A DNA stretch of 26,681 bases from an uncultured Gammaproteobacteria bacterium (GTDB lineage Bacteria; Patescibacteriota; Patescibacteriia; UBA2591; UBA6264). The notes under the pieces are model-generated. The model did no database searches and had not been told where the DNA came from. It saw only the letters and a list, made by a program, of their open reading frames with translations. Positions 1-26,681 of this stretch are shown piece after piece; the first letter of the stretch is position 1; each line of letters starts with the position of its first letter. A program made the position numbers and the translations under genes. The DNA is taken from the NCBI GenBank assembly GCA_964507075.1, contig CAZDOL010000009.1, positions 1-26,681 on the forward strand, read 5' to 3'.

Positions 1-61
1 TGGCCAGAGCAATAGTTTTGTAAACTATAGGTCGTCGGTTCGAATCCGACTCCAGGCTCCA
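1..61 (+). tRNA. tRNA-Thr (anticodon UGU), 3' portion only; the 5' end lies outside the window
   Basis: Hand fold. T arm GTCGG-TTCGAAT-CCGAC (34-50). Variable loop AGGTC. Anticodon stem ATAGT/ACTAT with 7-nt loop TTTGTAA, giving anticodon TGT. Acceptor 3' strand TCCAGGC, discriminator T, encoded CCA ending at 61. Confidence 0.8.
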
Positions 62-84
62 TAAATCAATTAAAATGAATTATT

Positions 85-240
85 ATGTCCCAAGACAACT
101 TAATTAAATTAGAGTGTAGTGAATGTCATCGTATAAATTATTACTCTAGAAAAAACAAAAAAACCAACAAAGATAGGCTAGAGTTAAAGAAATATTGTCG
201 TTGGTGCAAGAAACACACTCTTCATAAAGAGACAAAATAA
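85..240 (+). CDS. rpmG: 50S ribosomal protein L33 (Cys4 zinc-ribbon type), 51 aa; below the ORF-track length cutoff
   Basis: My translation is [51 protein letters not shown]. It has the L33 hallmarks: CxxC...CxxC, YYSRKNKK, and TLHKETK at the C-terminus. ATG at 85, TAA at 238-240. Confidence 0.9.
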
Positions 241-255
241 TTTTGTTTCCTTAGA

Positions 256-326
256 GGGGGCGTGGTGAAGTGGTATCATAGGAGTCTCCAAAACTTTTGT
301 CAGAGGTTCGATTCCTCTCGCCCCTG
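256..326 (+). tRNA. tRNA-Trp (anticodon CCA)
   Basis: Hand-folded cloverleaf. Acceptor GGGGGCG/CGCCCCT (G1-U72 wobble). U8 present. Anticodon stem GGAGT/ACTTT with loop CTCCAAA (anticodon CCA). T arm AGAGG-TTCGATT-CCTCT. No encoded CCA. Ends are accurate to about +/-2 nt. Confidence 0.85.
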
Positions 327-346
327 CTTTATGCTAAAAATTCATT

Positions 347-1453
347 ATGACAGATTATTATAAAATTTTAGGAGTTGACAAGAATGCTTCATCCTCAGAA
401 ATTAAACAGGCCTTTAGAAAATTAGCTCACAAACATCATCCAGATAAAGCAGGCGGAGATGCGCAAAAATTCAAAGAAATCAACGCTGCTTATCAGGCTC
501 TTTCTGATCCAGAAAAACGTAAGATGTATAATCAGTACGGGTCTAAGTTTGAACAAGCTAAAGCTCAAGGGAATTATAAGGGATTTGATTTTAATGATTT
601 TGCTTCTTATGCTGATGCCATGAGAGAGGAAGGTTCGGGTGGTTTTAGTTTTAATGGGTCTGACTTCGGCGGGCTGGGAGATATATTCGGAGATTTGTTT
701 GGCGGGAACAGAGGATTTAGCAGAGGGACAAGATCAACCAATAGAGGACGAGATATTCAGGTTCGTTTAGTTATTGATTTTAGGGAAGCAATTTTTGGCG
801 TAGAAAAAGAACTTCGTTTTGAGCGATATACAAAATGTCCAAAATGCAAAGGTACGAGTTTAGAGCCCGGCAGTAAAATGGTTATTTGTCCTTCTTGCCA
901 AGGAAAAGGAGAAATTATCCAAAATCAATCAACTTTTTTAGGAAATTTTAGAACCAGAAGTATTTGCCCAGAGTGCCATGGACAAGGAAACATTCCAGAG
1001 AAAAAATGTCATTATTGTCATGGTCAGGGACGAGTTAAAGAATTTTCTAAAATTAAAATTAAGATACCAGCTGGAGTTGAGAGTGGGCAGACCATCAGAT
1101 TTCATGATTACGGAGAAGCTGGAAAATTGGACGGAGAACAAGGCGACTTATATGTTATAGTTGTTATACGACCAGATTCATTTTTTCAACGTCAAGGAAA
1201 TGATATTTTTAGTGAACAAGAGGTCTTAATTTCTCAAGCTGTTCTCGGAGATAAGGTTAAAATAAAAACTTTATATGGAGAAGTGAATTTAAAAATTCCC
1301 TCAGGCACTCAATCTGGTCAGGAATTCCGTTTAAAAGGAAAAGGGGTATCCAAAAAAGGAAATCAAATTGTTAAAATTAATATTAAAATTCCTAAGCGTT
1401 TGAGCTCCCAACAGAAAAATTTATTAGAAAAATTATCTCAAGAGGGTCTCTAA
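347..1453 (+). CDS. dnaJ: Molecular chaperone DnaJ (type I: J domain, G/F region, four CxxCxGxG zinc motifs, C-terminal substrate domain)
   Basis: DYYKILGV...HPD motif at the N-terminus. G/F-rich linker. Zinc motifs CPKCKGTS, CPSCQGKG, CPECHGQG and CHYCHGQG. Confidence 0.95.
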   Translation: MTDYYKILGVDKNASSSEIKQAFRKLAHKHHPDKAGGDAQKFKEINAAYQALSDPEKRKMYNQYGSKFEQAKAQGNYKGFDFNDFASYADAMREEGSGGFSFNGSDFGGLGDIFGDLFGGNRGFSRGTRSTNRGRDIQVRLVIDFREAIFGVEKELRFERYTKCPKCKGTSLEPGSKMVICPSCQGKGEIIQNQSTFLGNFRTRSICPECHGQGNIPEKKCHYCHGQGRVKEFSKIKIKIPAGVESGQTIRFHDYGEAGKLDGEQGDLYVIVVIRPDSFFQRQGNDIFSEQEVLISQAVLGDKVKIKTLYGEVNLKIPSGTQSGQEFRLKGKGVSKKGNQIVKINIKIPKRLSSQQKNLLEKLSQEGL

Positions 1454-1522
1454 TTTTGTATCTTATAATTAAAATACCTTAATTTTTATACAATAATATT
1501 TAATTTCAAGCTTTGCTTATAT

Positions 1523-2902
1523 ATGAATTTTGATTTTATATTAAACCCAAATCTTTTATCTTTCTATATTGAGCAAGGTTTTTATTATTTTGCTCAGTTT
1601 TTTTTAAATTATGGTCTTTGGATATTTTTAACCCTTGTTATTTTAACAATAATATGGAAGCATTGGATAGACAAAAATAAGAAACAATATTTATCCAAAC
1701 AGAAATATATACTTTTGGGAATTAATATGCCCAAAGATAATGAGCAGGGCCCAGAAGCAGTGGAAAGATTTTTTGTGCATTTAGCAGGCATTAGAGAGAA
1801 ATTTACATGGTATGAAAAGAATATTCAAGGCAAAAGCCAACTGAATATATCTTTAGAAATGGTCAGCATTGAGGGACAAATTCAATTTTTTATACACACC
1901 CCAGTTCAATTTCGTGATTTAGTGGAATCAGCTATCTACACTTCTTATCCTAGTTTAGAAATTTTTGAAGAAAACCAAGATTACACAGATAATGCATTAG
2001 AAGGATTTTTAGAAGATAAGCATAATGTCTGGGGCGCGGACCTTAAACTGGTTGAACAAAATCCCATTCCCATTAAAACTTACCCTGAATTTGAGCACAA
2101 ACTTAGTAAAGAATTAAAAGATCCATTAATAGATCTTTTGGAAGTTTTGGGCAGATTGAAGGCAAGCGAACAAATTTGGCTCCAATTTATTATTACTCCA
2201 ATTGACTCAGAACTTAAGGAAGAGGGAGAGAGATTAATAAAAAAGATCTTACTTGGGAAGGATATTAAAAAAAATCCTAACAACATTATAGATATGGCTG
2301 TGCTTTTCCTGATGAAATTTGGGCAAGATGCAGTAGAATTTATTAAAGAAGTCCTAGATCTTCATCCAACGGTAGATAAATTTGAAGACAAAGAAGAAAA
2401 GAATATTTCTTTACCAGGAGACAAACGTTTGATTGATGCGATTCAAAATAAAATATCTAAAATCGCTTTTGAATCTTGCATCAGGATGGTTTATTTGGCT
2501 GATAAAGAAGTTTTTGCCAAAGATAGAGGTATAACAGGAACTTTGGGCGCTTTTAACGCTTTTCGCGCAATAGATTTAAATAGTTTTGAGGTTTCATTAG
2601 TTTCAAGGGTTGCTGAGAAGAATTGGAAGGGCAGTAAAATTTTAGAAGCCCAAAAACAAGAAGTTATTAAGGCATATCAAAAAAGAGCTTTCAAGTGGAG
2701 GGCAAGGGTTGGTATCCCTAAGATAATTTTTAAAGTTAAAAATTTTTTAACCCTACCTGAACGTTCGGCTCCCAAAAGCATTTTAAACACAGAGGAATTA
2801 GCCACTATTTATCATTTCCCAGTTAATATGATAAAAGTATCTCTTATTAAAAAAACCAGTAGCAAAAAAGCCGAACCACCATTAGGATTGCCCGTTAAGT
2901 AG
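1523..2902 (+). CDS. Hypothetical membrane-anchored protein (N-terminal TM segment, large soluble C-terminal region); function unknown
   Basis: Long uninterrupted ORF of 459 aa. Hydrophobic N-terminus (GLWIFLTLVILTIIW). No catalytic motif that I recognise. ELATIYHFP motif near the C-terminus. Confidence 0.7.
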   Translation: MNFDFILNPNLLSFYIEQGFYYFAQFFLNYGLWIFLTLVILTIIWKHWIDKNKKQYLSKQKYILLGINMPKDNEQGPEAVERFFVHLAGIREKFTWYEKNIQGKSQLNISLEMVSIEGQIQFFIHTPVQFRDLVESAIYTSYPSLEIFEENQDYTDNALEGFLEDKHNVWGADLKLVEQNPIPIKTYPEFEHKLSKELKDPLIDLLEVLGRLKASEQIWLQFIITPIDSELKEEGERLIKKILLGKDIKKNPNNIIDMAVLFLMKFGQDAVEFIKEVLDLHPTVDKFEDKEEKNISLPGDKRLIDAIQNKISKIAFESCIRMVYLADKEVFAKDRGITGTLGAFNAFRAIDLNSFEVSLVSRVAEKNWKGSKILEAQKQEVIKAYQKRAFKWRARVGIPKIIFKVKNFLTLPERSAPKSILNTEELATIYHFPVNMIKVSLIKKTSSKKAEPPLGLPVK

Positions 2903-3080
2903 CGACTTTGTCTGATAAAATCAAACCCGTAGGGTGAAGATTTTTCAGCAACAAAGACGACTACCCTGTTAAATACTGCTATGCAGTAATTTCGCCAAAG
3001 GCGAAATTATTTAACAGGGTGCTCAAAAATAAAATAAAATTTAATTCGCTTTGCTCTAAAATTTTAATATTTTTGGCATG
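2900..3080 (+). repeat. Structured intergenic element, copy A (full length, core in 'A/B' orientation)
   Basis: Runs from TAG at 2900, the stop of the upstream ORF, to ATG at 3078, the rsmI start. Hairpin module 2912-2948. Core 2963-3020, bounded by ACCCTGTTAAAT / ATTTAACAGGGT. Right arm 3021-3077. Its flanks are near-identical to copy D (26314-26493). Confidence 0.9.
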
Positions 3081-3746
3081 AATTTATACATTATCGCTAC
3101 TCCCATTGGAAACCTTCAAGACATTAGCGCCCGAGCTTTAGAAATTTTAAAGAGCGTAAATTTTATTCTTTGCGAAGACACTAGGCATACGCAAAAACTT
3201 TTGTCTTTTTATAATATCTCAAATAAATTAGTTAGTTATCACCAGCATTCCAATCAGAGAAAAATTGATTATATTTTGGATTTACTCAATAATGGGCACG
3301 ACATAGCTTTGGTATCTGATGCTGGCACTCCTGGGATATCAGATCCTGGAAATAAATTAATTAATTTAGCGATTGAAAGAATAGATAAATTGAAAGTAAT
3401 CCCTATCCCTGGACCTTGTGCACCCATCACAGCTTTATCTGTTTCAGGATTTCCTACTGATAAGTTTATTTTTTATGGCTTTATCCCTCAAAAGAAAGGC
3501 CGTCGTAAAATTTTAGAACAGATAGTGAATAGTTCCTTAACTAGTGTTTTTTTTGAATCTGGGCATAGAATCCAAAAAACTTTAAATACTTTATTGGAAT
3601 TAAATTTGGAAAAAAAAATTGTAATTTGTAGGGAATTAACAAAGAAATTTGAAACTATTTATCGAGGTGCTGTTGAAGATTTATTACCATTAATGAAAGA
3701 TAAAGCTCTTAAAGGAGAATTTGTAATTGTTGTAGCAAATAAATAA
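3078..3746 (+). CDS. rsmI: 16S rRNA (cytidine1402-2'-O)-methyltransferase RsmI (tetrapyrrole-methylase fold)
   Basis: N-terminus LYIIATPIGNLQDISARALEILKSVNFILCEDTRHTQKLL and the DAGTPGISDPG motif are typical of RsmI. Confidence 0.85.
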   Translation: MNLYIIATPIGNLQDISARALEILKSVNFILCEDTRHTQKLLSFYNISNKLVSYHQHSNQRKIDYILDLLNNGHDIALVSDAGTPGISDPGNKLINLAIERIDKLKVIPIPGPCAPITALSVSGFPTDKFIFYGFIPQKKGRRKILEQIVNSSLTSVFFESGHRIQKTLNTLLELNLEKKIVICRELTKKFETIYRGAVEDLLPLMKDKALKGEFVIVVANK

Positions 3747-3756
3747 TTTTATTCTT

Positions 3757-5262
3757 ATGAAAAAATTTTACATCACCACTCCTATTTATTATGTTAATGA
3801 TTATCCTCATTTAGGTCATGCTTATTCTACTATTGCTGCTGATGTTTTGGCTAGATTTCATAGAATGAAAGGAGAGGAAGTATTTTTTCTGACCGGCACT
3901 GATGAACATGGCGCTAAAGTAGCTCAGATGGCTACTGAAAAGAAAATGGAGCCTCAAAAATTATGCGATCAAATTTCAGCTAAGTATGAAAAGGTTTGGG
4001 ATACTCTAAAAATTTCTTATGATAATTTCATCAGGACGACCAATTCCGAACACAAGAAAATAGTTGCTAAGGTTTTGCAGATATTGAACGACAAGAAGCT
4101 GATTTATAAGAGTGTTTACAAAGGACTTTATTGTGTCGCTTGCGAAAGGTATTATACTCCCAAAGAACTAATTAACGGAGAATGTCCTATCCACAAGAAA
4201 AAAGCAATCAGCTTATCTGAAGATTGCTATTTTTTTAAATTGTCGGTCTTTCAAGAAAAATTACTGAAACTAATCAAAAAAGGCGAGTTAATTATTGAAC
4301 CTATAGAAAGAAGGAAGGAACTTCTTAGTTTTTTAGAGTTGAATAAGTTAGAGGATTTAGCTATTTCTAGAACCAATGTAAAGTGGGGGATTTCTCTTCC
4401 TTGGGACCCAAAGCAGACTATTTATGTTTGGGTAGATGCTTTATTAAATTATCTTTCTGGTTTGGGATGGAATGGCAAAGTAAATCAAATACCAGAACAA
4501 TGGCCGCCAGATGTTCAGTTGTTGGGTAAAGATATATTAAGATTTCACGCTGTTATTTGGCCAGCTTTGCTTTTGGCCTTAAATATTCCATTGCCACGCA
4601 AATTATATATCCACGGTTTTTTTACAATCAATGGACAAAAAATGGGCAAATCTATGGGAAATGCTATTGACCCCGAAGAAATGGCAACAATTTTTGGTGT
4701 AGACGCTTTGCGCTGGCTGATACTTTCCTCCTTTCCTTTTGGTCGTGATGGTGATATCTCGCAATCCAAGTTCTATGATAAATATAACGCAGATTTATCT
4801 AATGGTCTGGGAAATTTATTGAGAAGAGTTTTGTCTTTAGCGGAAAAAGCTAATGAGAATTTTTTGTCCTCTAAAAATATTGAGCAAAAATTTCAAAAAG
4901 AAATTAAAGTTTTATGGAAAAATTATGATATCTTTTTTAACGAATTAAAATTTGAAACAATCACGACAAGCATTCAAAACTTTATAGGATTTTGTGATCG
5001 TTATGTTGACAAGAACGAACCATGGAAATTATTTAAGGATAATTTTAAGCAGTACAAGAATGTAATTTATAATCTATTGGAAAGTTTGCGTCATATTGCT
5101 TGGTTAATTCAGCCCTTTATGCCCGATAAAAGCGACGAAATTTTTAAAAGTTTAGGCCTGGAAAATTCAGAAAAAGAAAAATCTTTATCCATTGGACAAC
5201 AATGGGGAAAAACAGAATTTACAAATGTATCCCAAGGAAAAATCTTATTCCCCCGTTTATAG
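3757..5262 (+). CDS. metG: Methionine--tRNA ligase (short form without a C-terminal tRNA-binding appendage)
   Basis: HIGH-type motif (YPHLGHAYS). KMSKS-type motif (KMGKSMGN). Zinc knuckle CVACE...CPIH. Anticodon-binding region with NEPWKL. Confidence 0.95.
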   Translation: MKKFYITTPIYYVNDYPHLGHAYSTIAADVLARFHRMKGEEVFFLTGTDEHGAKVAQMATEKKMEPQKLCDQISAKYEKVWDTLKISYDNFIRTTNSEHKKIVAKVLQILNDKKLIYKSVYKGLYCVACERYYTPKELINGECPIHKKKAISLSEDCYFFKLSVFQEKLLKLIKKGELIIEPIERRKELLSFLELNKLEDLAISRTNVKWGISLPWDPKQTIYVWVDALLNYLSGLGWNGKVNQIPEQWPPDVQLLGKDILRFHAVIWPALLLALNIPLPRKLYIHGFFTINGQKMGKSMGNAIDPEEMATIFGVDALRWLILSSFPFGRDGDISQSKFYDKYNADLSNGLGNLLRRVLSLAEKANENFLSSKNIEQKFQKEIKVLWKNYDIFFNELKFETITTSIQNFIGFCDRYVDKNEPWKLFKDNFKQYKNVIYNLLESLRHIAWLIQPFMPDKSDEIFKSLGLENSEKEKSLSIGQQWGKTEFTNVSQGKILFPRL

Positions 5263-11080: not shown

Positions 11081-11115
11081 TAATAAATATTTAATAAATA
11101 ACTATATATATCACA

Positions 11116-11142
11116 ACACTACAGGGTCTGACCTTGTAGTGT
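11116..11142 (+). terminator. Hairpin of shared 3' module, copy 1 (after htrA)
   Basis: ACACTACAGGGT-CTG-ACCTTGTAGTGT forms a 12-nt-arm hairpin. It is part of a roughly 75-nt module that begins at the last codons and stop (..GAAGAATAA..ATATATATCACAACACT..). The downstream T tract is weak (ATTT). Confidence 0.55.
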
Positions 11143-11144
11143 AT

Positions 11145-11173
11145 TTGACAAAAGCTCTCTTTTTTGCTAATAT
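11145..11173 (+). promoter_or_regulatory. Sigma70-type promoter for the 261-aa gene
   Basis: TTGACA (11145-11150), a 17-nt spacer, then TGC-TAATAT (extended -10, 11165-11173). Confidence 0.55.
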
Positions 11174-12046: not shown

Positions 12047-12073
12047 ACACTACAGGGTCCGACCCTGTAGTGT
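12047..12073 (+). terminator. Hairpin of shared 3' module, copy 2 (after the 261-aa gene)
   Basis: ACACTACAGGGTC-C-GACCCTGTAGTGT has perfect 13-nt arms and is followed by TTTTTGTAT. Confidence 0.7.
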
Positions 12074-12158
12074 TTTTGTATATAGATTGTTTGTGGGGTT
12101 TTTAATATTCTAATATTTTGATATAATATTATATATGGAAATTACAGAGTCTAAATAA
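12074..12158 (+). repeat. Duplicated copy of the prfB promoter and first codons (truncated remnant encoding MEITESK*)
   Basis: TTTTGTATATAG..TTGTGGGGTTTTT..TG-A-TATAAT..ATATATGGAAATTACAGAG matches 13246-13385 (TTTTTTTGTATTATAG..TTGTAGGGTTTTA..TG-G-TATAAT..ATATATGGAAATGACAGAA). ATG at 12135, stop at 12156-12158. Confidence 0.75.
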
Positions 12159-12244: not shown

Positions 12245-12285
12245 TATTGAACTAAATAATTTAATTTGTTCTAATTTTAAAATTT

Positions 12286-13170
12286 ATGATTAAAGAAAAT
12301 GATCAAGAATTTCAAGAAAAAGCTCTTGATTATATCCAAACTCTTTTATATCAAGGTGCAAACAAGGATTTAGTTGCCGAGAATTTAGCTGGGTTAGATT
12401 CAGACAGAGCATGGAAAATGCGAGAAGATTTTTTGGCCCAGGGCGTAGATAAGCGTTGGATTATTTCTGGTTTAGCTGGGTTAAATTCAGACAGAGCATG
12501 GAAAATGCGAGAAGAGCTTTTGTTTCAAGGCGTAAACAAGGATTTAGTTGCTCTGAGTTTAAGTGGTTTAGATTCAGATAGAGCATGGGATATGCGACAA
12601 GATCTTTTGTCTCAAGGCATACACAAGCCTGATATTGTTAGAGGTTTAGTTGGTTTAGATTCAGATAGAGCATGGAAAATGCGAGAAGAATTTTTTTCTA
12701 AGGGCACAGTCAAAGAATCAGTTCCCTTAAGTTTAATTGGTTTAGATTCAGATAGAGCATGGGATATGCGAAAGAGGATTTTGTCTAAAATCTATACTAA
12801 TTTATCTACTCAAGAATTATATCAGAATTGGGTTGCTCAGAGTTTAACTGGTTTAGATTCAGATAGAGCATGGAAAATGCGAGAAAATCTTTTGCTTCGA
12901 AAGGGAACAAGGAATTCAATTACTCAGAGTTTAGCTGGGTTAGATTCAGATAGAGCATGGGACATGAGAGAAAGAATGTTATCTTATGGCGTAAATAACA
13001 ATTGGATTGTTAAAAGTTTAGCTGGGTTAGATTCAGATAGAGCATGGGACATGAGAGAAAATTTTTTGTCTCAAGGCGCAGACGAGGGCCGTGTTGCTCA
13101 AGGAGTTTATGGTGATTATACAATGGTAGGTGTCAGAAAAGCAAGAAGAGATAAAGCAGAACAAGAATAA
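12286..13170 (+). CDS. Hypothetical tandem-repeat protein: eight copies of a 29-residue unit with core GLDSDRAW(K/D)MRE; predicted alpha-solenoid; function unknown
   Basis: Protein-level repeats such as LAGLDSDRAWKMREDFLAQGVDKRWIISG. The fifth unit is 37 aa. Alternating conserved hydrophobic and charged positions suggest a helical hairpin repeat. Confidence 0.75.
   Translation: MIKENDQEFQEKALDYIQTLLYQGANKDLVAENLAGLDSDRAWKMREDFLAQGVDKRWIISGLAGLNSDRAWKMREELLFQGVNKDLVALSLSGLDSDRAWDMRQDLLSQGIHKPDIVRGLVGLDSDRAWKMREEFFSKGTVKESVPLSLIGLDSDRAWDMRKRILSKIYTNLSTQELYQNWVAQSLTGLDSDRAWKMRENLLLRKGTRNSITQSLAGLDSDRAWDMRERMLSYGVNNNWIVKSLAGLDSDRAWDMRENFLSQGADEGRVAQGVYGDYTMVGVRKARRDKAEQE
12388..13107 (+). repeat. 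Intragenic 87-nt tandem repeat array (8 units; unit 5 is 111 nt)
   Basis: Units start at 12388, 12475, 12562, 12649, 12736, 12847, 12934 and 13021. The core GG(G/T)TTAGATTCAGA(C/T)AGAGCATGGGA/AAA.ATG is almost invariant at the nucleotide level. Confidence 0.9.
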
Positions 13171-13195: not shown

Positions 13196-13250
13196 CTCAA
13201 CACTCCAGAGCTGTACCCCGTTCTACGGGGTCTGACCTTGTAGTGTTTTT
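13196..13250 (+). terminator. Shared 3' module, copy 3 (after the repeat-protein gene), with an internal insertion
   Basis: Sequence is CTCAACACT-CCAGAGCTGTACCCCGTT-CTACGGGGTCTGACCTTGTAGTGT followed by TTTTTTT. It carries about 18 extra nt relative to copies 1 and 2. A CCCCG-TTCTA-CGGGG hairpin lies at 13216-13230. Confidence 0.6.
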
Positions 13251-13293
13251 TTGTATTATAGTTAATCTGTAGACGTTGGGCAAAAACATTAGT

Positions 13294-21088: not shown

Positions 21089-21223
21089 AATTGAATTAAT
21101 AAAAGGTTTTTACTTACCATTGATAACCGTTTGTTGAATAACAAATGAAGTGTTAAGGGGAATTAATTACCTGGGGAGAAAAATTTTCATTAATTTAAAT
21201 CAGACAAAATAGAATAATAAATA

Positions 21224-21272
21224 AGCCGGATTTGTAACCGGTCTCTAAGGGTCTGGTTCTCTGGCTTTTTTT
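21224..21272 (+). terminator. Intrinsic-terminator-like long hairpin plus T7 tract inside the 217-nt rpsJ-rplC spacer
   Basis: AGCCGGA...AACCGGTCTC-TAA-GGGTCTGGTT.TCTGGCT is followed by TTTTTT(T). The outer helix is 7 bp and the inner helix about 9 bp, with G-U pairs and one mismatch. Confidence 0.55.
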
Positions 21273-21305
21273 ATTGAATATTTTTTATAACATTAAATAC
21301 AAGGT

Positions 21306-22549: not shown

Positions 22550-22553
22550 AGAC

Positions 22554-22649
22554 ATCAGGTACTTGGGTAATCAGGTACTTGGGTAATCAGGATTTTAATT
22601 ATTTAATTTACCCAATTAACCAATTAACCAAGCACCCAATTAACCAATT
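22554..22649. repeat. Tandem and interspersed short repeats in the rplD-rplW spacer
   Basis: The 16-nt unit ATCAGGTACTTGGGTA is present in 2.4 copies (22554-22591). CCCAATTAACCAATT occurs at 22611-22625 and 22635-22649. TTGGGTAA (22579-22586) is complementary to TTACCCAA (22608-22615). Confidence 0.85.
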
Positions 22650-22653
22650 CAAT

Positions 22654-23130
22654 ATGTTCTTATTTAAGAAGAAAAAAGATTCCTTGACACCACCCGTCAA
22701 GACCGATCAGAAAAAAGAGAAGTCATTGACCATTAAGAAGGGTGCGCCTTCAGTTTCTTCTGTTCCAGGGATTTCAAAACAAGAGTCAAAAAAGGTAACG
22801 CCAATTTCTAAATCAAAAGCAGTTCATCTTGGCTCAAATAAGGATCTTTTTGGAAATCTTTTGCTTCGGCCCATTATAACAGAAAAAGCTACAATTTTAG
22901 CAGGAGAAAATAATTGTTACGTTTTTGAGATTGCTTCACGAGCAAATAAAATTTCTATTAAGAAAGCGATTGCGGAAGTCTATAATTTTACTCCTATTAA
23001 AATTAATATCGTTAAAATTAAGGGCAAAAGTGTAAGGTATGGTCGTTCACGGGGCAGGACTAAAAATAAAAAAAGAGCTTTAGTTTTTCTTAAAAAGGGT
23101 GATCATATAGAATTTGTAAAAAGGGGCTAA
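22654..23130 (+). CDS. rplW: 50S ribosomal protein L23 with a K-rich N-terminal extension of roughly 65 aa
   Basis: The canonical L23 core begins at LLRPIITEKAT. I prefer ATG 22654 (MFLFKKKK) over the track's TTG at 22579, which lies inside the repeat region. The exact start remains uncertain. Confidence 0.85.
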   Translation: MFLFKKKKDSLTPPVKTDQKKEKSLTIKKGAPSVSSVPGISKQESKKVTPISKSKAVHLGSNKDLFGNLLLRPIITEKATILAGENNCYVFEIASRANKISIKKAIAEVYNFTPIKINIVKIKGKSVRYGRSRGRTKNKKRALVFLKKGDHIEFVKRG

Positions 23131-24024: not shown

Positions 24025-24318
24025 ATGTCTAGATCACTTAAAAAGGGACCTTGGGTGGACCCAAAATTATTAAAGAAAATATCCAAATTAAAATCAGGAG
24101 ACAAGACAATTATAAAAACTTGGTCTCGTAGTTCAACTATTATTCCAGAAATGGTAGGTTTTGTTTTTGGTGTTCATAATGGAAAAATTCATATTCCTGT
24201 TTCAATTTCTGAAAATATGATTGGCCATAAGTTGGGTGAGTTCTCTTTGACTAAAAATTTTGTCAAACACGGAGGAAAGATGCAAAAAGCTCTAGAAACG
24301 GCTGCTAAGAAAAAATAA
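24025..24318 (+). CDS. rpsS: 30S ribosomal protein S19
   Basis: [12 protein letters not shown]...[17 protein letters not shown]. Confidence 0.95.
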
Positions 24319-24336
24319 TAATTATAAAATTTTTTT

Positions 24337-24936
24337 ATGCAAGTGCAAGCTCGAAGTAAGTATTTAAAAATCTCGGCCAAGAAAATGAGATTAGTGGCTG
24401 TAACTATTAAAGGAATGGATGTTTCTTATGCTTTAGATTATTTGAAATTCATTCCCCATAAAGCATCACCGTTAGTTTCTAAACTTCTTCATTCAGCCAT
24501 AGCTAACGCTGAGCATAATTTTAATCTTGATAGTCATAATCTATTTGTAAAAAAAATCTTTGCTGACGAAGGAACAATGCTTAAAAGGTGGCGCGCTAGA
24601 GCGTTTGGTAGAGCTACTCCTATACATAAAAAAAGTTCGCATTTAACAATTATTTTAGAAGAAAAAGTTCCTAGCAAGCAACAACATAAATCAAACGACA
24701 ATAAATTAAAAGAACCTTCTGTTTTAAAGACTGATTTGCATGAAACAAAAATAAAACCTTTAGAAAGTGTACATTCTGGGAAATTAGAGAAAGATGAAAT
24801 AGAAGAAGAAACTAAAGAGGGCAGAGACAGTCAGGAACAAGATAATAAATATCGCAAAAAACAAAATCTTAAGCGAGTTCAGAATAAATCTAAAGCCATA
24901 ACACTAAAAAAGATTTTCAGAAGAAAAAGTATTTAA
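24337..24936 (+). CDS. rplV: 50S ribosomal protein L22 with a charged C-terminal extension of about 90 aa
   Basis: The L22 core runs through ...RWRARAFGRATPIHKKSSHLTIILEE. It is followed by a K/E/Q-rich tail. Confidence 0.92.
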   Translation: MQVQARSKYLKISAKKMRLVAVTIKGMDVSYALDYLKFIPHKASPLVSKLLHSAIANAEHNFNLDSHNLFVKKIFADEGTMLKRWRARAFGRATPIHKKSSHLTIILEEKVPSKQQHKSNDNKLKEPSVLKTDLHETKIKPLESVHSGKLEKDEIEEETKEGRDSQEQDNKYRKKQNLKRVQNKSKAITLKKIFRRKSI

Positions 24937-25117
24937 AGGGCTTTGTCTGATAAAATCAAACCCGCAGGGTGAAGATTTTTCAGCAACAAAACCTTTACCC
25001 TGTTAAATACTGCTACGCAGTAATTTCGCCAGAGGCGAAATTATTTAACAGGGTACTCAAATTTGAAACGAAATTTCCTTCGTTACTTCGTAACTCGTAA
25101 ATTTAGACAAATTTAGT
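24937..25117 (+). repeat. Structured intergenic element, copy B (core in 'A/B' orientation, divergent right arm)
   Basis: Hairpin module 24947-24983. Core 24997-25054 (ACCCTGTTAAAT...ATTTAACAGGGT). The right arm differs from copies A and D and contains its own hairpin, AACGAA-ATTTCC-TTCGTT. Confidence 0.9.
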
Positions 25118-25768
25118 ATGGGCAGAAAAGTAAATCCAAAAATTTTCCGCATCCCGCTTATTAATCAGTGGGATTCAAAGTGGTTCGCTAGTAAAAATAA
25201 ATTCCGCCATTTTTTGGAGGAAGATTTACGAATTAGAAAATTTTTAAAGACAAAATTAAAAAATTGCGGAATTTCTAAAATAACTATAGAAAGATTTGCA
25301 GGAACATTTAGGGTAATAATTCATACCGCTAAACCTGGTTTGATTATTGGTAGAGGTGGCCTTGATATTGAAAAGCTAAAGAAGGTAATCAAGCTAAATT
25401 TTTTAAAAAATAAAGATTTGAATTTAGAAATTAATGTCATAGAAGAAAAATCACCTTTGTTAGCCGCAGAAGTAGTGTTAGAAGGAGCAATTTTGGAGTT
25501 AGAAAAAAGGATGCCATATAGACGAGTGTTGAAAAAGGTTATCAAGCAGGTTCAGGACGGAAAAGCTAATGGGGTTAAAATTATAGTCAAGGGACGTTTG
25601 GGCGGTGCCGAAATAGCCAGATCAGAAAAAGCGATCTGGGGAAATCTCCCCCTTCATACTCTACGCGCTGACATAGATTATGCTCGTGGAGTGGCAGCCA
25701 CTACCTATGGTTCTATTGGCGTTAAGGTTTGGATTTATAAAGGAGAGAAGTTTAGTAATTCTGTCTGA
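25118..25768 (+). CDS. rpsC: 30S ribosomal protein S3
   Basis: MGRKVNPKIFR...KH domain...GRLGGAEIARSE. The stop TGA (25766-25768) lies inside the repeat element's conserved TGTCTGATA. Confidence 0.95.
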   Translation: MGRKVNPKIFRIPLINQWDSKWFASKNKFRHFLEEDLRIRKFLKTKLKNCGISKITIERFAGTFRVIIHTAKPGLIIGRGGLDIEKLKKVIKLNFLKNKDLNLEINVIEEKSPLLAAEVVLEGAILELEKRMPYRRVLKKVIKQVQDGKANGVKIIVKGRLGGAEIARSEKAIWGNLPLHTLRADIDYARGVAATTYGSIGVKVWIYKGEKFSNSV

Positions 25769-25902
25769 TATTTTTAAGTCCGCAGGACGCAGAAAATTCA
25801 GCTACAGAATTGCTACCCTGTTAAATAATTTCGCCTTTGGCGAAATTGCCACGGAGTGGCATTTAACAGGGTGCTCAAAAATTAATAAATTAATTTTTTC
25901 GC
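25762..25902 (+). repeat. Structured intergenic element, copy C (core in 'C/D' orientation, short right arm, covarying hairpin module)
   Basis: Hairpin module 25765-25801. Core 25815-25872. Right arm GCTCAAAAATTAATAAATTAATTTTTTCGC runs up to ATG 25903. Confidence 0.9.
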
Positions 25903-26316
25903 ATGTTAATGCCCAAAAAGTTAAAACATCGCAAAAGTCATAAAGGACGCGCTAGGGGTAAGAGGATAGCCACTAGAGGTACGAGGGTTAGCTTTGGAGA
26001 TTTTGGATTAAAAGGATTGGATTTTTCTTGGATTACTTCTAGACAGATTGAGTCAGCTCGTCGCACCATAACTCATTCTCTGGCCAAAACTGGAAAGGTA
26101 TGGATTAGGATATTCCCACATAAACCAGTGACAGCTAAGGGAGCAGAAGTACCAATGGGCGGTGGTAAGGGAGCAGTTGATCATTATGTGGCGGTAGTTA
26201 AACCAGGTACTGTTCTTTTTGAGGTTGCTGGGGTTGAAGAAACAGTTGCTAAAGAAGCTTTTCGTTTAGCTTCGCATAAACTACCCGTAAAAACAAAGTT
26301 TGTTTATAGGGTATAG
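25903..26316 (+). CDS. rplP: 50S ribosomal protein L16
   Basis: [16 protein letters not shown]...; typical L16 over its whole length. Confidence 0.96.
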
Positions 26317-26493
26317 CGACTTTGTCTGATAAAATTGAACCCGCAGGGTGAAAATTTTTCAGCCACAAAGACGCTACCCTGTTAAATAATTTCGCTTACA
26401 GCGAAATTGCCGCAGAGCGGCATTTAACAGGGTGCTCAAAAATCTAATAAAATTTAATTCGCTTCGCTCTAAAATTTTAACATTTTTGGCATG
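26314..26493 (+). repeat. Structured intergenic element, copy D (full length, core in 'C/D' orientation)
   Basis: Runs from TAG 26314-26316, the rplP stop, to ATG 26491, the rpmC start. Hairpin module 26326-26362. Core 26376-26433. The right arm differs from copy A at only 4 positions. Confidence 0.9.
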
Positions 26494-26676
26494 AAAATAT
26501 CTGAATTTAAAGCAAAAACAAAACAAGAATTGCAAAAAATATGTAGATCTGAACAGGAAAAGTTGAGACTATTGCGTTTTGACATTAAACTCAAACAATC
26601 TAAAAATGTGAGAGAAATACGAAAAACTAGAAAGCTAATTTCTCAGATGTTAACAATTTTGAACACAAAAAAATGA
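26491..26676 (+). CDS. rpmC: 50S ribosomal protein L29
   Basis: Size of 61 aa, position after rplP, and ELQKICRSEQEKLRLLRFDIKLKQSKNVREIRKTRKLISQMLTIL. Confidence 0.9.
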   Translation: MKISEFKAKTKQELQKICRSEQEKLRLLRFDIKLKQSKNVREIRKTRKLISQMLTILNTKK

Positions 26677-26681
26677 TCAAT
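26673..26681 (+). CDS. Possible start of 30S ribosomal protein S17 (ATGA overlap with the rpmC stop); only 3 codons are in the window
   Basis: ATG at 26673 overlaps TGA at 26674-26676. S17 normally follows L29. There is far too little sequence to confirm this. Confidence 0.25.

Follow-up and report, generated by a model that had tools for sequence, protein, structure and literature searches.

What keeps the shape of a short hairpin constant at several gene junctions while its letters change, and is that shape kept as RNA or as DNA? The question is raised by contig CAZDOL010000009.1 (assembly GCA_964507075.1), recorded as an uncultured Gammaproteobacteria bacterium and placed by GTDB among the Patescibacteriota, of which we analyzed 26,681 nt, referred to here as the window. 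A preliminary description, made from the letters of the window, had reported four copies of a 37-nt hairpin with compensatory base-pair changes between them and had concluded that selection acts on structure, either RNA or single-stranded DNA, and not on primary sequence. This hairpin is one arm of a three-hairpin repeat of 135-180 bases that occupies entire gene-to-gene spacers, and the element is probably a multi-copy, mosaic, non-coding selfish repeat built of three self-folding palindromic modules: a long hairpin (P1), a core shaped as a three-way junction, and a further hairpin (P3), in that order and abutting with zero linker bases. For the core, the best reading is selfish palindromic DNA rather than a dedicated RNA.

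The four hairpins themselves are real. A degenerate 37-nt pattern has exactly four matches in the window, with 0 expected from shuffles, at 2912-2948 (copy A), 24947-24983 (copy B), 25765-25801 (copy C), and 26326-26362 (copy D). Read directly, copies A, B, and D are CTGA-T-AAAAT-(CAA/TGA)-ACCC-G(T/C)A-GGGT-(GAAG/GAAA)-ATTTT-TCAG and copy C is CTGA-T-ATTTT-TAA-GTCC-GCA-GGAC-GCAG-AAAAT-TCAG, with three A-T pairs of the middle helix flipped in copy C and two apical pairs doubly substituted, just as first described. All stem differences between copy C and the other copies (10/10) are compensated, with Watson-Crick pairing retained. The ninth pair of the long hairpin in the core (C-G in copies A, B, and C, T-A in copy D) and the small core hairpins ACTGC/GCAGT, GCCAC/GTGGC, and GCCGC/GCGGC, also reported earlier, are likewise present. 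The 37-nt hairpin is part of a longer stem in which CTTTGT/ACAAAG (A and D) becomes TTCTGT/ACAGAA (C), also covarying; beyond the view of the first reading lay the third hairpin, the extension of the stem to the stop codon, and an inversion of the core between copies.

Architecture of the P1-Core-P3 Element

All four spacers fold as three abutting domains, with RNA minimum free energies of -57 to -62 kcal/mol and z-scores of -5.9 to -8.6 (RNAfold), and copy C adopts the same fold under DNA parameters (z -9.9) and also on the opposite strand. P1 is 63-64 nt long, contains the 37-nt module, and pairs the upstream stop codon in its base, TAG with CTA in copies A and D and TAAAGG with CCTTTA in copy B; copy C is the exception, having its stop codon higher up the P1 stem, where the frame of ribosomal protein S3 enters P1 and ends at TGA 25766-25768. 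The core consists of an 11-bp outer stem (CCCTGTTAAAT/ATTTAACAGGG) around two flush hairpins, a perfect three-way junction of T shape. P3 follows the pattern TRC-T-CAAA... ...TTTG-GYA and closes on the A of the downstream ATG at 3078, 25118, 25903, and 26491. In copies A and B the core is inverted (reverse-complemented) relative to C and D, the two orientations being 83-86% complementary over 58-59 nt.

In copy A, P1 lies at 2900-2963 on the plus strand, where RNAfold pairs the stop TAG of the upstream open reading frame (ORF), 2900-2902, with CTA at 2961-2963 (P1 model, 71.2 bits). Its core, between the arms CCCTGTTAAAT/ATTTAACAGGG, occupies 2964-3019 on the minus strand, with the short hairpin first on the plus strand ("flop"), and scores 78.4 bits with the core model on the minus strand versus 41 bits on the plus strand. 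P3 (3020-3078, plus strand) reads TGC-T-CAAAAAT ... ATTTTTG-GCA, and its last paired base is the A of an rsmI-like ATG at 3078. Copy B comprises P1 at 24934-24997 (plus strand; 83.3 bits), with the L22 stop TAA (24934-24936) paired in its base, a minus-strand core at 24998-25053, again with the short hairpin first on the plus strand, and P3 at 25054-25118 (plus strand), closing on the start codon of S3.

Copies C and D lie entirely on the plus strand. P1 of copy C (25753-25815; 71.2 bits) includes the hairpin at 25765-25801, and its 5' strand is formed by the last S3 codons; the core follows at 25816-25871 with the long hairpin first ("flip"; 79.8 bits on the plus strand) and then a short P3 at 25872-25903, TGC..AAAAATTAA taaa TTAATTTTT..GCA, closing on the ATG of L16. 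P1 of copy D (26314-26376; 70.5 bits) carries the module at 26326-26362 and pairs the L16 stop TAG (26314-26316) with CTA; its core (26377-26432; 80.8 bits) also has the long hairpin first, and its P3 (26433-26491) closes on the ATG of L29.

A Large Family with Covarying Helices

A scan of one genome per species with a two-arm pattern found cores with exact arms in at least 120 genome loci, those listed being mostly from Patescibacteria lineages, with several contigs each from WOR-3 and Omnitrophota metagenome-assembled genomes (MAGs) and others from Stahlbacteria and Desulfobacterota. Metagenomes scanned for the core together with the beginning of P3 yielded 84 loci, with 93 distinct P1-core-P3 composites. 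Exact arms were demanded in both scans.

Larger alignments bear the preliminary description out, with pairs in both P1 and the core varying with compensation far above shuffled controls. A covariance model of P1 found 98 copies, 88 of them distinct, in which 24 of 25 pairs change on both sides, and the covariation score was 0.395, compared with 0.122 ± 0.007 after shuffling (0 of 500 shuffles reached 0.395) and at most 0.183 with slid partners. In the core alignment of 144 distinct rows, 97.9% of cells are paired, all 14 of 14 inner pairs covary, each with all four Watson-Crick types, and the score is 0.469 versus 0.097; both the P1 and the core alignments were fitted to their own model, which biases these figures toward structure. 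Two flush hairpins are the fold of 143 of 202 unique core interiors but of only 2 of 4040 shuffled sequences. The second pair of P3 is split evenly between G-C (26 sequences) and A-T (26), with a mismatch in 0 of 52; further pairs covary, and the invariant bulged T is followed by a purine-purine internal loop. A conserved G.U in the base of P1 in one P1 alignment proved to be spurious, caused by fitting TAAAG-type copies to a model of the TAGCG type.

At gathering score, Rfam 15 returned only two tRNAs from the window and no family for the element, and a permissive scan over 24900-26520 gave only chance-level matches (E ≥ 0.24). Literature searches by sequence and by topic returned primers and unrelated matches, with no account of such repeats in Patescibacteria.

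The Core as Probable Mobile Palindromic DNA

Several properties of the core point to DNA. Within composites, where the strand of the transcript is fixed, the core occurs in both orientations, long hairpin first in 41 and short hairpin first in 34. The triloop of the small hairpin is 89% purine (115/129) in the long-hairpin-first class versus 23% (25/107) in the short-hairpin-first class; given that this bias switches with the orientation of the core, the triloop follows the DNA and not the RNA. Outside composites, core polarity correlates only loosely with asymmetric flanks (TTTA...TGAA). G.U pairs make up ∼2% of inner core cells, ∼4% are unpaired, and sense and antisense strands fold equally well by folding energy. 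Cores, or a related CCCCGTTAGAT palindrome, are found nested at the hairpin tips of other copies, including the small-hairpin position of other cores, and 36 of 122 cores are bordered by direct repeats of ≥7 nt, where ∼6 are expected.

The core is also found in frame within genes. In a GatA that contains one, alignment to solved GatA structures in the Protein Data Bank spans residues 12-496, running through the core-encoded peptide HPVKCRFAAISRTAKLFNRV, and single Pfam domains likewise span the insert in two GT4 glycosyltransferases and one DsbD. Further cores lie inside the KsgA reading frame and, in a linker, inside the HolB reading frame.

The outer arms are exact in 230 of 247 copies within the fetched loci, which were themselves fetched by an exact-arm pattern, and the few arm variants are compensated, wobble, and broken in equal parts. 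The first conclusion stands in part. Helices are kept as pairings while their sequence shifts, far above chance by covariation and fold shuffles; in the 11-bp outer arms, primary sequence is kept as well. Between RNA and single-stranded DNA, the level at which the core is constrained reads as DNA, with no dedicated RNA, given its orientation flips, its low G.U content, and its copies in frame in genes. Nor is selection the sole possible cause, because arm-to-arm template switching or conversion in DNA palindromes gives the same double changes.

It is indeed possible, if on the unlikely side, that in the core the compensatory changes are a by-product of such palindrome dynamics and not of selection on the fold, with intra-strand template switching or conversion rewriting one arm from the other and recombination between arms inverting loops and interiors (flip-flop). 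The near-pure Watson-Crick stems of the core would fit this explanation, as would the covarying pairs of P3, which pass through no G.T or A.C intermediates among 52 copies, the presence of loops and whole interiors in both orientations, and stems that are perfect even within coding sequence. However, P1 retains asymmetric bulges and internal loops that conversion would erase and tolerates G.T on one strand only, and core hairpins that differ entirely between copies always abut without a linker, which suggests a constraint on shape.

Further forms of the core were seen among the loci. In-frame cores at L038 5542-5603 (an Omnitrophota MAG) and L068 1869-1922 (a Patescibacteria MAG) occupy a similar place in HolB, the linker after the δ' N-terminal domain, which could be coincidence, a tolerated hot spot, or transfer. 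In WOR-3 and Stahlbacteria (L006, L007, L009, L012, L026, L030, L047, and others) the same 11-bp arms enclose a 40-nt interior that is not of the two-hairpin type; this variant is flanked by direct AACCACAGA repeats and has many copies per MAG. Mini-palindromes of the form CCCCGTTAGAT-loop-ATCTAACGGGG (L085 3625-3690, L088, L098, and L009 2455-2490) carry doubly compensated arm variants and are located at P1 and P3 hairpin tips and beside WOR-3 cores. Long versions of the core, with ∼115-125 nt between the arms (L033 5173-5318, L129 5942-6086, L138 5511-5656, L197 1576-1712, and L204 1741-1877), apparently have one hairpin swapped for a much longer one with the arms AAGATTTG...CAAATCTT.

Gain and Loss between Relatives and Strains

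Elements are present or absent at the same junctions in related genomes. At the S3|L16 junction the window has an element, and relatives of ∼83-89% identity have none and carry a longer C-terminal tail on S3. Element C takes the place of this Lys/Glu-rich tail, supplying the last codons and the stop; S3 of the window is ∼20 residues shorter than in the relatives (25753-25768 compared with L167 3080-3250 and L130 3145-3325). The L22|S3 junction is element-free in one relative (L130), and tuf|S10, a 28-nt spacer in the window, is occupied by an element in two relatives. In one relative, the ortholog of copy B retains P1 and P3 around a core interior that is wholly unrelated.

The closest comparison concerns a fifth copy, at the L14|L24 junction just outside the window, in the same species. 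One contig carries a 174-nt element there (L205 11427-11600) and another a 7-nt spacer, AAATTTT (L208 2990-2996), giving TAG + 174-nt element + ATG versus TAG-AAATTTT-ATG between contigs that have an identical L16 and 99.8-99.97% identity. This element is 85% identical to copy D, and the two share junction sequences, TATAG on the 5' side and ATGAAAAT on the 3' side, a possible hint of microhomology-guided copying. In every filled and empty pair the native spacer is replaced flush from stop to start and is never split. Comparison of strains for substitutions inside elements gave 0 differences among 680 element bases.

The L16|L29 spacer of L130 matches the last 22 nt of copy D, which prompted the idea that the 3' strand of P3 is native spacer. 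We discarded it, as this 3' strand is found again at numerous unrelated junctions, and the L130 spacer is more likely an element remnant. Another contig, L206, has an S10-spc operon identical to that of L205 with rpsL-rpsG-fusA-tuf upstream instead of glmS-comEC-ndk-tuf (positions 1-4800 in both); most of the differences between these contigs (78 of 86) are in tuf, a pattern suggestive of a recombination breakpoint in that gene.

Orientation of P1 and P3 Follows the Downstream Gene

Of 76 composites, as found by the pattern of core plus P3 start, 75 point the same way as the downstream gene. The upstream gene shares this direction in 70 and lies on the opposite strand in 9, and one composite lies 4 nt ahead of a tRNA. 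P3 terminates at a real ORF's ATG in 51 of 74 cases, and P1 starts with a stop codon in 47 of 52, a codon that closes a long ORF in frame only about half the time. Isolated mismatches in P1, read on the sense strand, are G.T in 12 cases versus A.C in 2, at positions that differ between copies; the sense strand of P1 is the more stable by folding energy in 37 of 48 informative copies, and a purine-rich 2 × 3 internal loop (RA/GNA) is retained across subfamilies. Given these sense-strand features of P1, and the co-orientation of P1 and P3 with the downstream gene, a constraint at the level of RNA is plausible; for the 37-nt hairpin, as part of P1, the aligned sequences make an RNA-level or sense-strand constraint plausible.

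A stronger form of this idea is that the whole of P1-core-P3 would be a functional intercistronic RNA, a "punctuation" or insulator cassette comparable with the RNase III sites of phage T7. Cleavage of the RNase III type would protect the upstream message with a 3' hairpin and release the start region sequestered by P3 in a host that does without Shine-Dalgarno sequences. The near-invariable co-orientation with the downstream gene speaks for such a role, together with the stop codon paired in P1 and the A of the AUG closing P3, the P1 and P3 helices of ∼22-25 bp with conserved purine-rich internal loops, and the sense-strand G.U excess in P1. It is also in keeping with this model that no Shine-Dalgarno-like motif was found upstream of the window genes, whose upstream regions are A+T-rich with T nearly always at -1 (the window has 33% G+C), and that other long spacers of the same operon are hairpin-forming too. 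However, the core flips relative to the transcript and has copies inside ORFs, and close strains and relatives are element-free at the same junctions. The opposite-strand upstream genes and the copy ahead of a tRNA also fit poorly, as do the P1 stop codons, such as TAA, that end a long ORF in frame in only some half of the copies, and P3 has no sense-strand bias. We regard a dedicated function for the whole element as doubtful, and the constraint in mRNA as one that P1 and P3 would bear.

A K-turn was considered for the P1 internal loop and rejected by eye, the loop being 2 × 3 (RA/GNA) without the geometry of tandem G.A pairs. In one P3 subfamily (L124, L122, L133, L149, L161, and L182) the 5' strand GCTCAATG can pair with either the 3' end beside the ATG or a CATTGAGC in the P3 apex, a possible alternative fold by which the start codon would become free.

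A Probable Mosaic of Selfish Palindromes

The reading that we prefer, a mosaic selfish repeat, may be set out as follows. The core would be a small T-shaped DNA palindrome with invariant 11-bp arms, a non-autonomous selfish DNA that spreads within and between genomes into spacers, into the hairpin tips of other copies, and in frame into genes, with flips of orientation as in other DNA palindromes, presumably by a hairpin-dependent DNA mechanism. Its stems may be kept perfect by the need to fold as single-stranded or cruciform DNA, by arm-to-arm copying repair, or by both. P1 and P3 would be lineage-specific flanking modules of a Patescibacteria subfamily, and the three modules together would substitute the whole stop-to-start spacer, co-oriented with the downstream gene. 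As P1 and P3 are transcribed inside operons (here L22-S3-L16-L29), they would be under an extra constraint to fold compactly in mRNA.

Some observations weigh against this reading. The direct repeats that flank cores are 7-12 nt long, of variable length and offset, and some lie within larger repeats. A search of the 1.4 Mb of fetched loci, whole genomes not included, turned up neither a transposase nor a master copy that has such arms and carries an ORF; unpaired arms in these loci are nested copies or variants with arms ∼125-135 nt apart, enclosing no ORF. The reading gives no explanation for an 11-mer arm that is conserved exactly across phyla, and the invariance of the arms is itself partly built into the sample, since the scans required it. 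Flush replacement of the spacer from stop to start is unlike the product of simple transposition. P3 folds better on the antisense strand (60 copies versus 11), a bias opposite to that of P1, leaving the strand evidence mixed, and the strict orientation rule, the purine-rich loops, and the G.U excess of P1 would fit a functional RNA equally well.

A more far-reaching proposal, which we consider speculative and rather unlikely, is that the arms and T fold form the cis-acting site of an undescribed hairpin-recognizing system, HUH-like or Xer-like, that mobilizes single-stranded DNA and is common to Patescibacteria, WOR-3, and Omnitrophota. In Patescibacteria the site would have been domesticated with P1 and P3 as a stop-to-start "punctuation" cassette, processed or internally transcribed for downstream expression without Shine-Dalgarno sequences, and spread via microhomology at stop and start codons.

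The element might instead act as a portable promoter, with TTAACA of the core arm as a -35-like box and TAAAAT of the P3 5' strand, 17-18 nt downstream, as a -10-like box, such that transcripts would begin inside P3 without its inhibitory 5' strand. A scan does give TTAACA-18-TAAAAT in copy D and TTAACA-17-TAAATT in copy C, the same spacing is apparent by eye in copy A and many relatives, and the element always lies 5' of a co-oriented gene, once of a tRNA. This is nonetheless quite improbable, with promoter-like matches at shuffle expectation (7 versus 6.7), CGAAAT at this place in copy B and its abundant subfamily, a -35 role that cannot explain invariance of the full 11-mer, and the same arms occurring within ORFs.

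That the core is a site for site-specific recombination is very improbable, whichever model is taken. For integron attC sites (5'-RYYYAAC ... GTTRRRY-3' R box), the arms hold GTTAAAT and ATTTAAC, which fit the attC core-site consensus, and the core lies between genes as attC sites do, but the order is GTTAAAT...ATTTAAC, that is GTTRRRY...RYYYAAC, on both strands, such that the AAAT/ATTT end points to the interior, the reverse of attC, and there are several copies per 10 kb, some in ORFs. For Xer/dif, in which 11-bp arms for XerC and XerD are separated by 6 bp, TGTTAAAT is identical to the outermost 8 nt of the dif XerD arm TTATGTTAAAT (PMC2731167), a match at 8 of 11 bases, but the flanks have no conserved second, XerC-like arm and no 6-bp spacer geometry and tend to direct, not inverted, repeats. 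An intrinsic terminator was likewise rejected, the element having no T run and a scan of 24300-26681 giving 0 terminator-like sites.

Comparison with Known Repeats

The element is a new family within a known kind of repeat, like the Rickettsia palindromic elements (RPE), repetitive extragenic palindromes (REP) and their mosaics (BIME), BOX elements, or miniature inverted-repeat transposable elements (MITE). RPE are likewise short, non-coding palindromic repeats of a reduced genome that occupy both spacers and, in frame, protein genes, to whose products they contribute a short peptide, and for neither is a transposase known. The in-frame palindromic insert in functional genes that marks RPE was found here as well (GatA, GT4, and DsbD, and the KsgA and HolB frames). 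RPE differ in taxon and sequence, and this core is only 50-62 bp, with a T fold, two hypervariable inner hairpins, 11-bp arms invariant across phyla, and orientation flips, so that the two are likened as a kind and not by homology. REP and BIME of enterobacteria and pseudomonads, which are mobilized by RAYT proteins, resemble the element as extragenic palindromes in either orientation that form operon mosaics and are transcribed. However, REPs are single imperfect hairpins with a GTAG/CGTC tag, species-specific and rarely in ORFs; no 20-40-nt imperfect palindrome with such a tag was found here, where the foot of the stem is TTYA-CCCTG and GTA is present only as the triloop in the P1 apex.

The short, non-coding, multi-copy form with terminal inverted repeats that defines a MITE is present (a core of 50-62 bp, 11-bp arms, and four copies in 26.7 kb). 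A target-site duplication would have a fixed length; the flanking direct repeats, in excess of expectation (36 of 122 versus ∼6), vary in length and offset. An autonomous transposase partner with the same ends is what the loci did not yield. BOX elements of pneumococci and Correia (CREE) elements of Neisseria are intergenic sequences of 100-200 bp, modular or built from inverted repeats, that fold in mRNA near gene starts, and Correia elements may carry promoter boxes and are cut by RNase III. They are unrelated in sequence, and a Correia element is one long hairpin with 26-bp terminal repeats and a TA duplication, whereas here three flush hairpins run from stop to start.

In shape, the core may be compared by analogy with the inverted terminal repeats (ITRs) of parvoviruses such as adeno-associated virus, where an outer stem also encloses two small hairpins in a T that occurs in flip and flop forms, as seen here in the two flush hairpins of 143 of 202 interiors and in the 41 and 34 composites of either orientation. 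ITRs are ∼125 nt, form the ends of a linear single-stranded DNA genome, and carry Rep-binding and nicking sites; the present element is internal, chromosomal, and multi-copy, and terminal position and Rep sites are absent. The intercistronic RNase III sites of phage T7 are, like P1 and P3, hairpins with internal loops in the spacers of a polycistronic message, and the modeled geometry of P1 and P3 would fit such a site (a roughly two-turn helix interrupted by an internal loop), but the T7 sites do not belong to a mobile repeat family and lack an invariant palindromic core.

Patescibacteria have among the smallest and most streamlined of bacterial genomes, yet here a structured repeat occurs about every 7 kb and occupies four junctions of the essential S10/spc ribosomal-protein operon. 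Arms that are identical across phyla would imply a shared mobilizing or binding activity or frequent exchange of DNA among these groundwater lineages. For annotation, the family accounts for spacers that are long and "empty," for small in-frame insertions in conserved proteins, and for shortened gene ends, the S3 tail among them. For method, it is a caution that DNA palindromes can yield strong covariation, such that covariation alone is no proof of a functional RNA. Should P1 and P3 turn out to be processed, they would provide an entry to the expression of operon genes without Shine-Dalgarno sequences.

Other Repeats of the Window

Hairpins followed by a true T run occur elsewhere in the window, at 11105-11147, 12047-12084, and 13223-13256, after three consecutive genes. 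They are related to each other (ACACTACAGGGTC..GACCCTGTAGTGT), the neighboring upstream regions are also repeated (D4, D8, D9, and I5), and they look like ordinary intrinsic terminators forming a small repeat family. The ORF at 12286-13170 contains about six copies of an 87-nt (29-residue) tandem repeat, at 12272-13168, and has only a weak DUF4113 match. The S10|L3 spacer (21089-21305) is unusually long at 217 nt, is without a core, and has a G+C-rich hairpin and then a T run near its end.

Other long spacers of the same ribosomal operon, namely L4|L23 in the window (22550-22653) and three on contig L205 (12672-12754, 13181-13322, and 16491-16704), consist of short tandem repeats, for example GGTACTTGGGTAATCAGG twice, ATGGGAAC three times, and AAATCCGA four times. 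In several of these an approximate inverted complement comes next, and hence such spacers can also fold as long hairpins. Similar iteron-like repeats flank cores in Omnitrophota. The listed ORF at 22579-23130 is L23, over-extended into the L4|L23 spacer.

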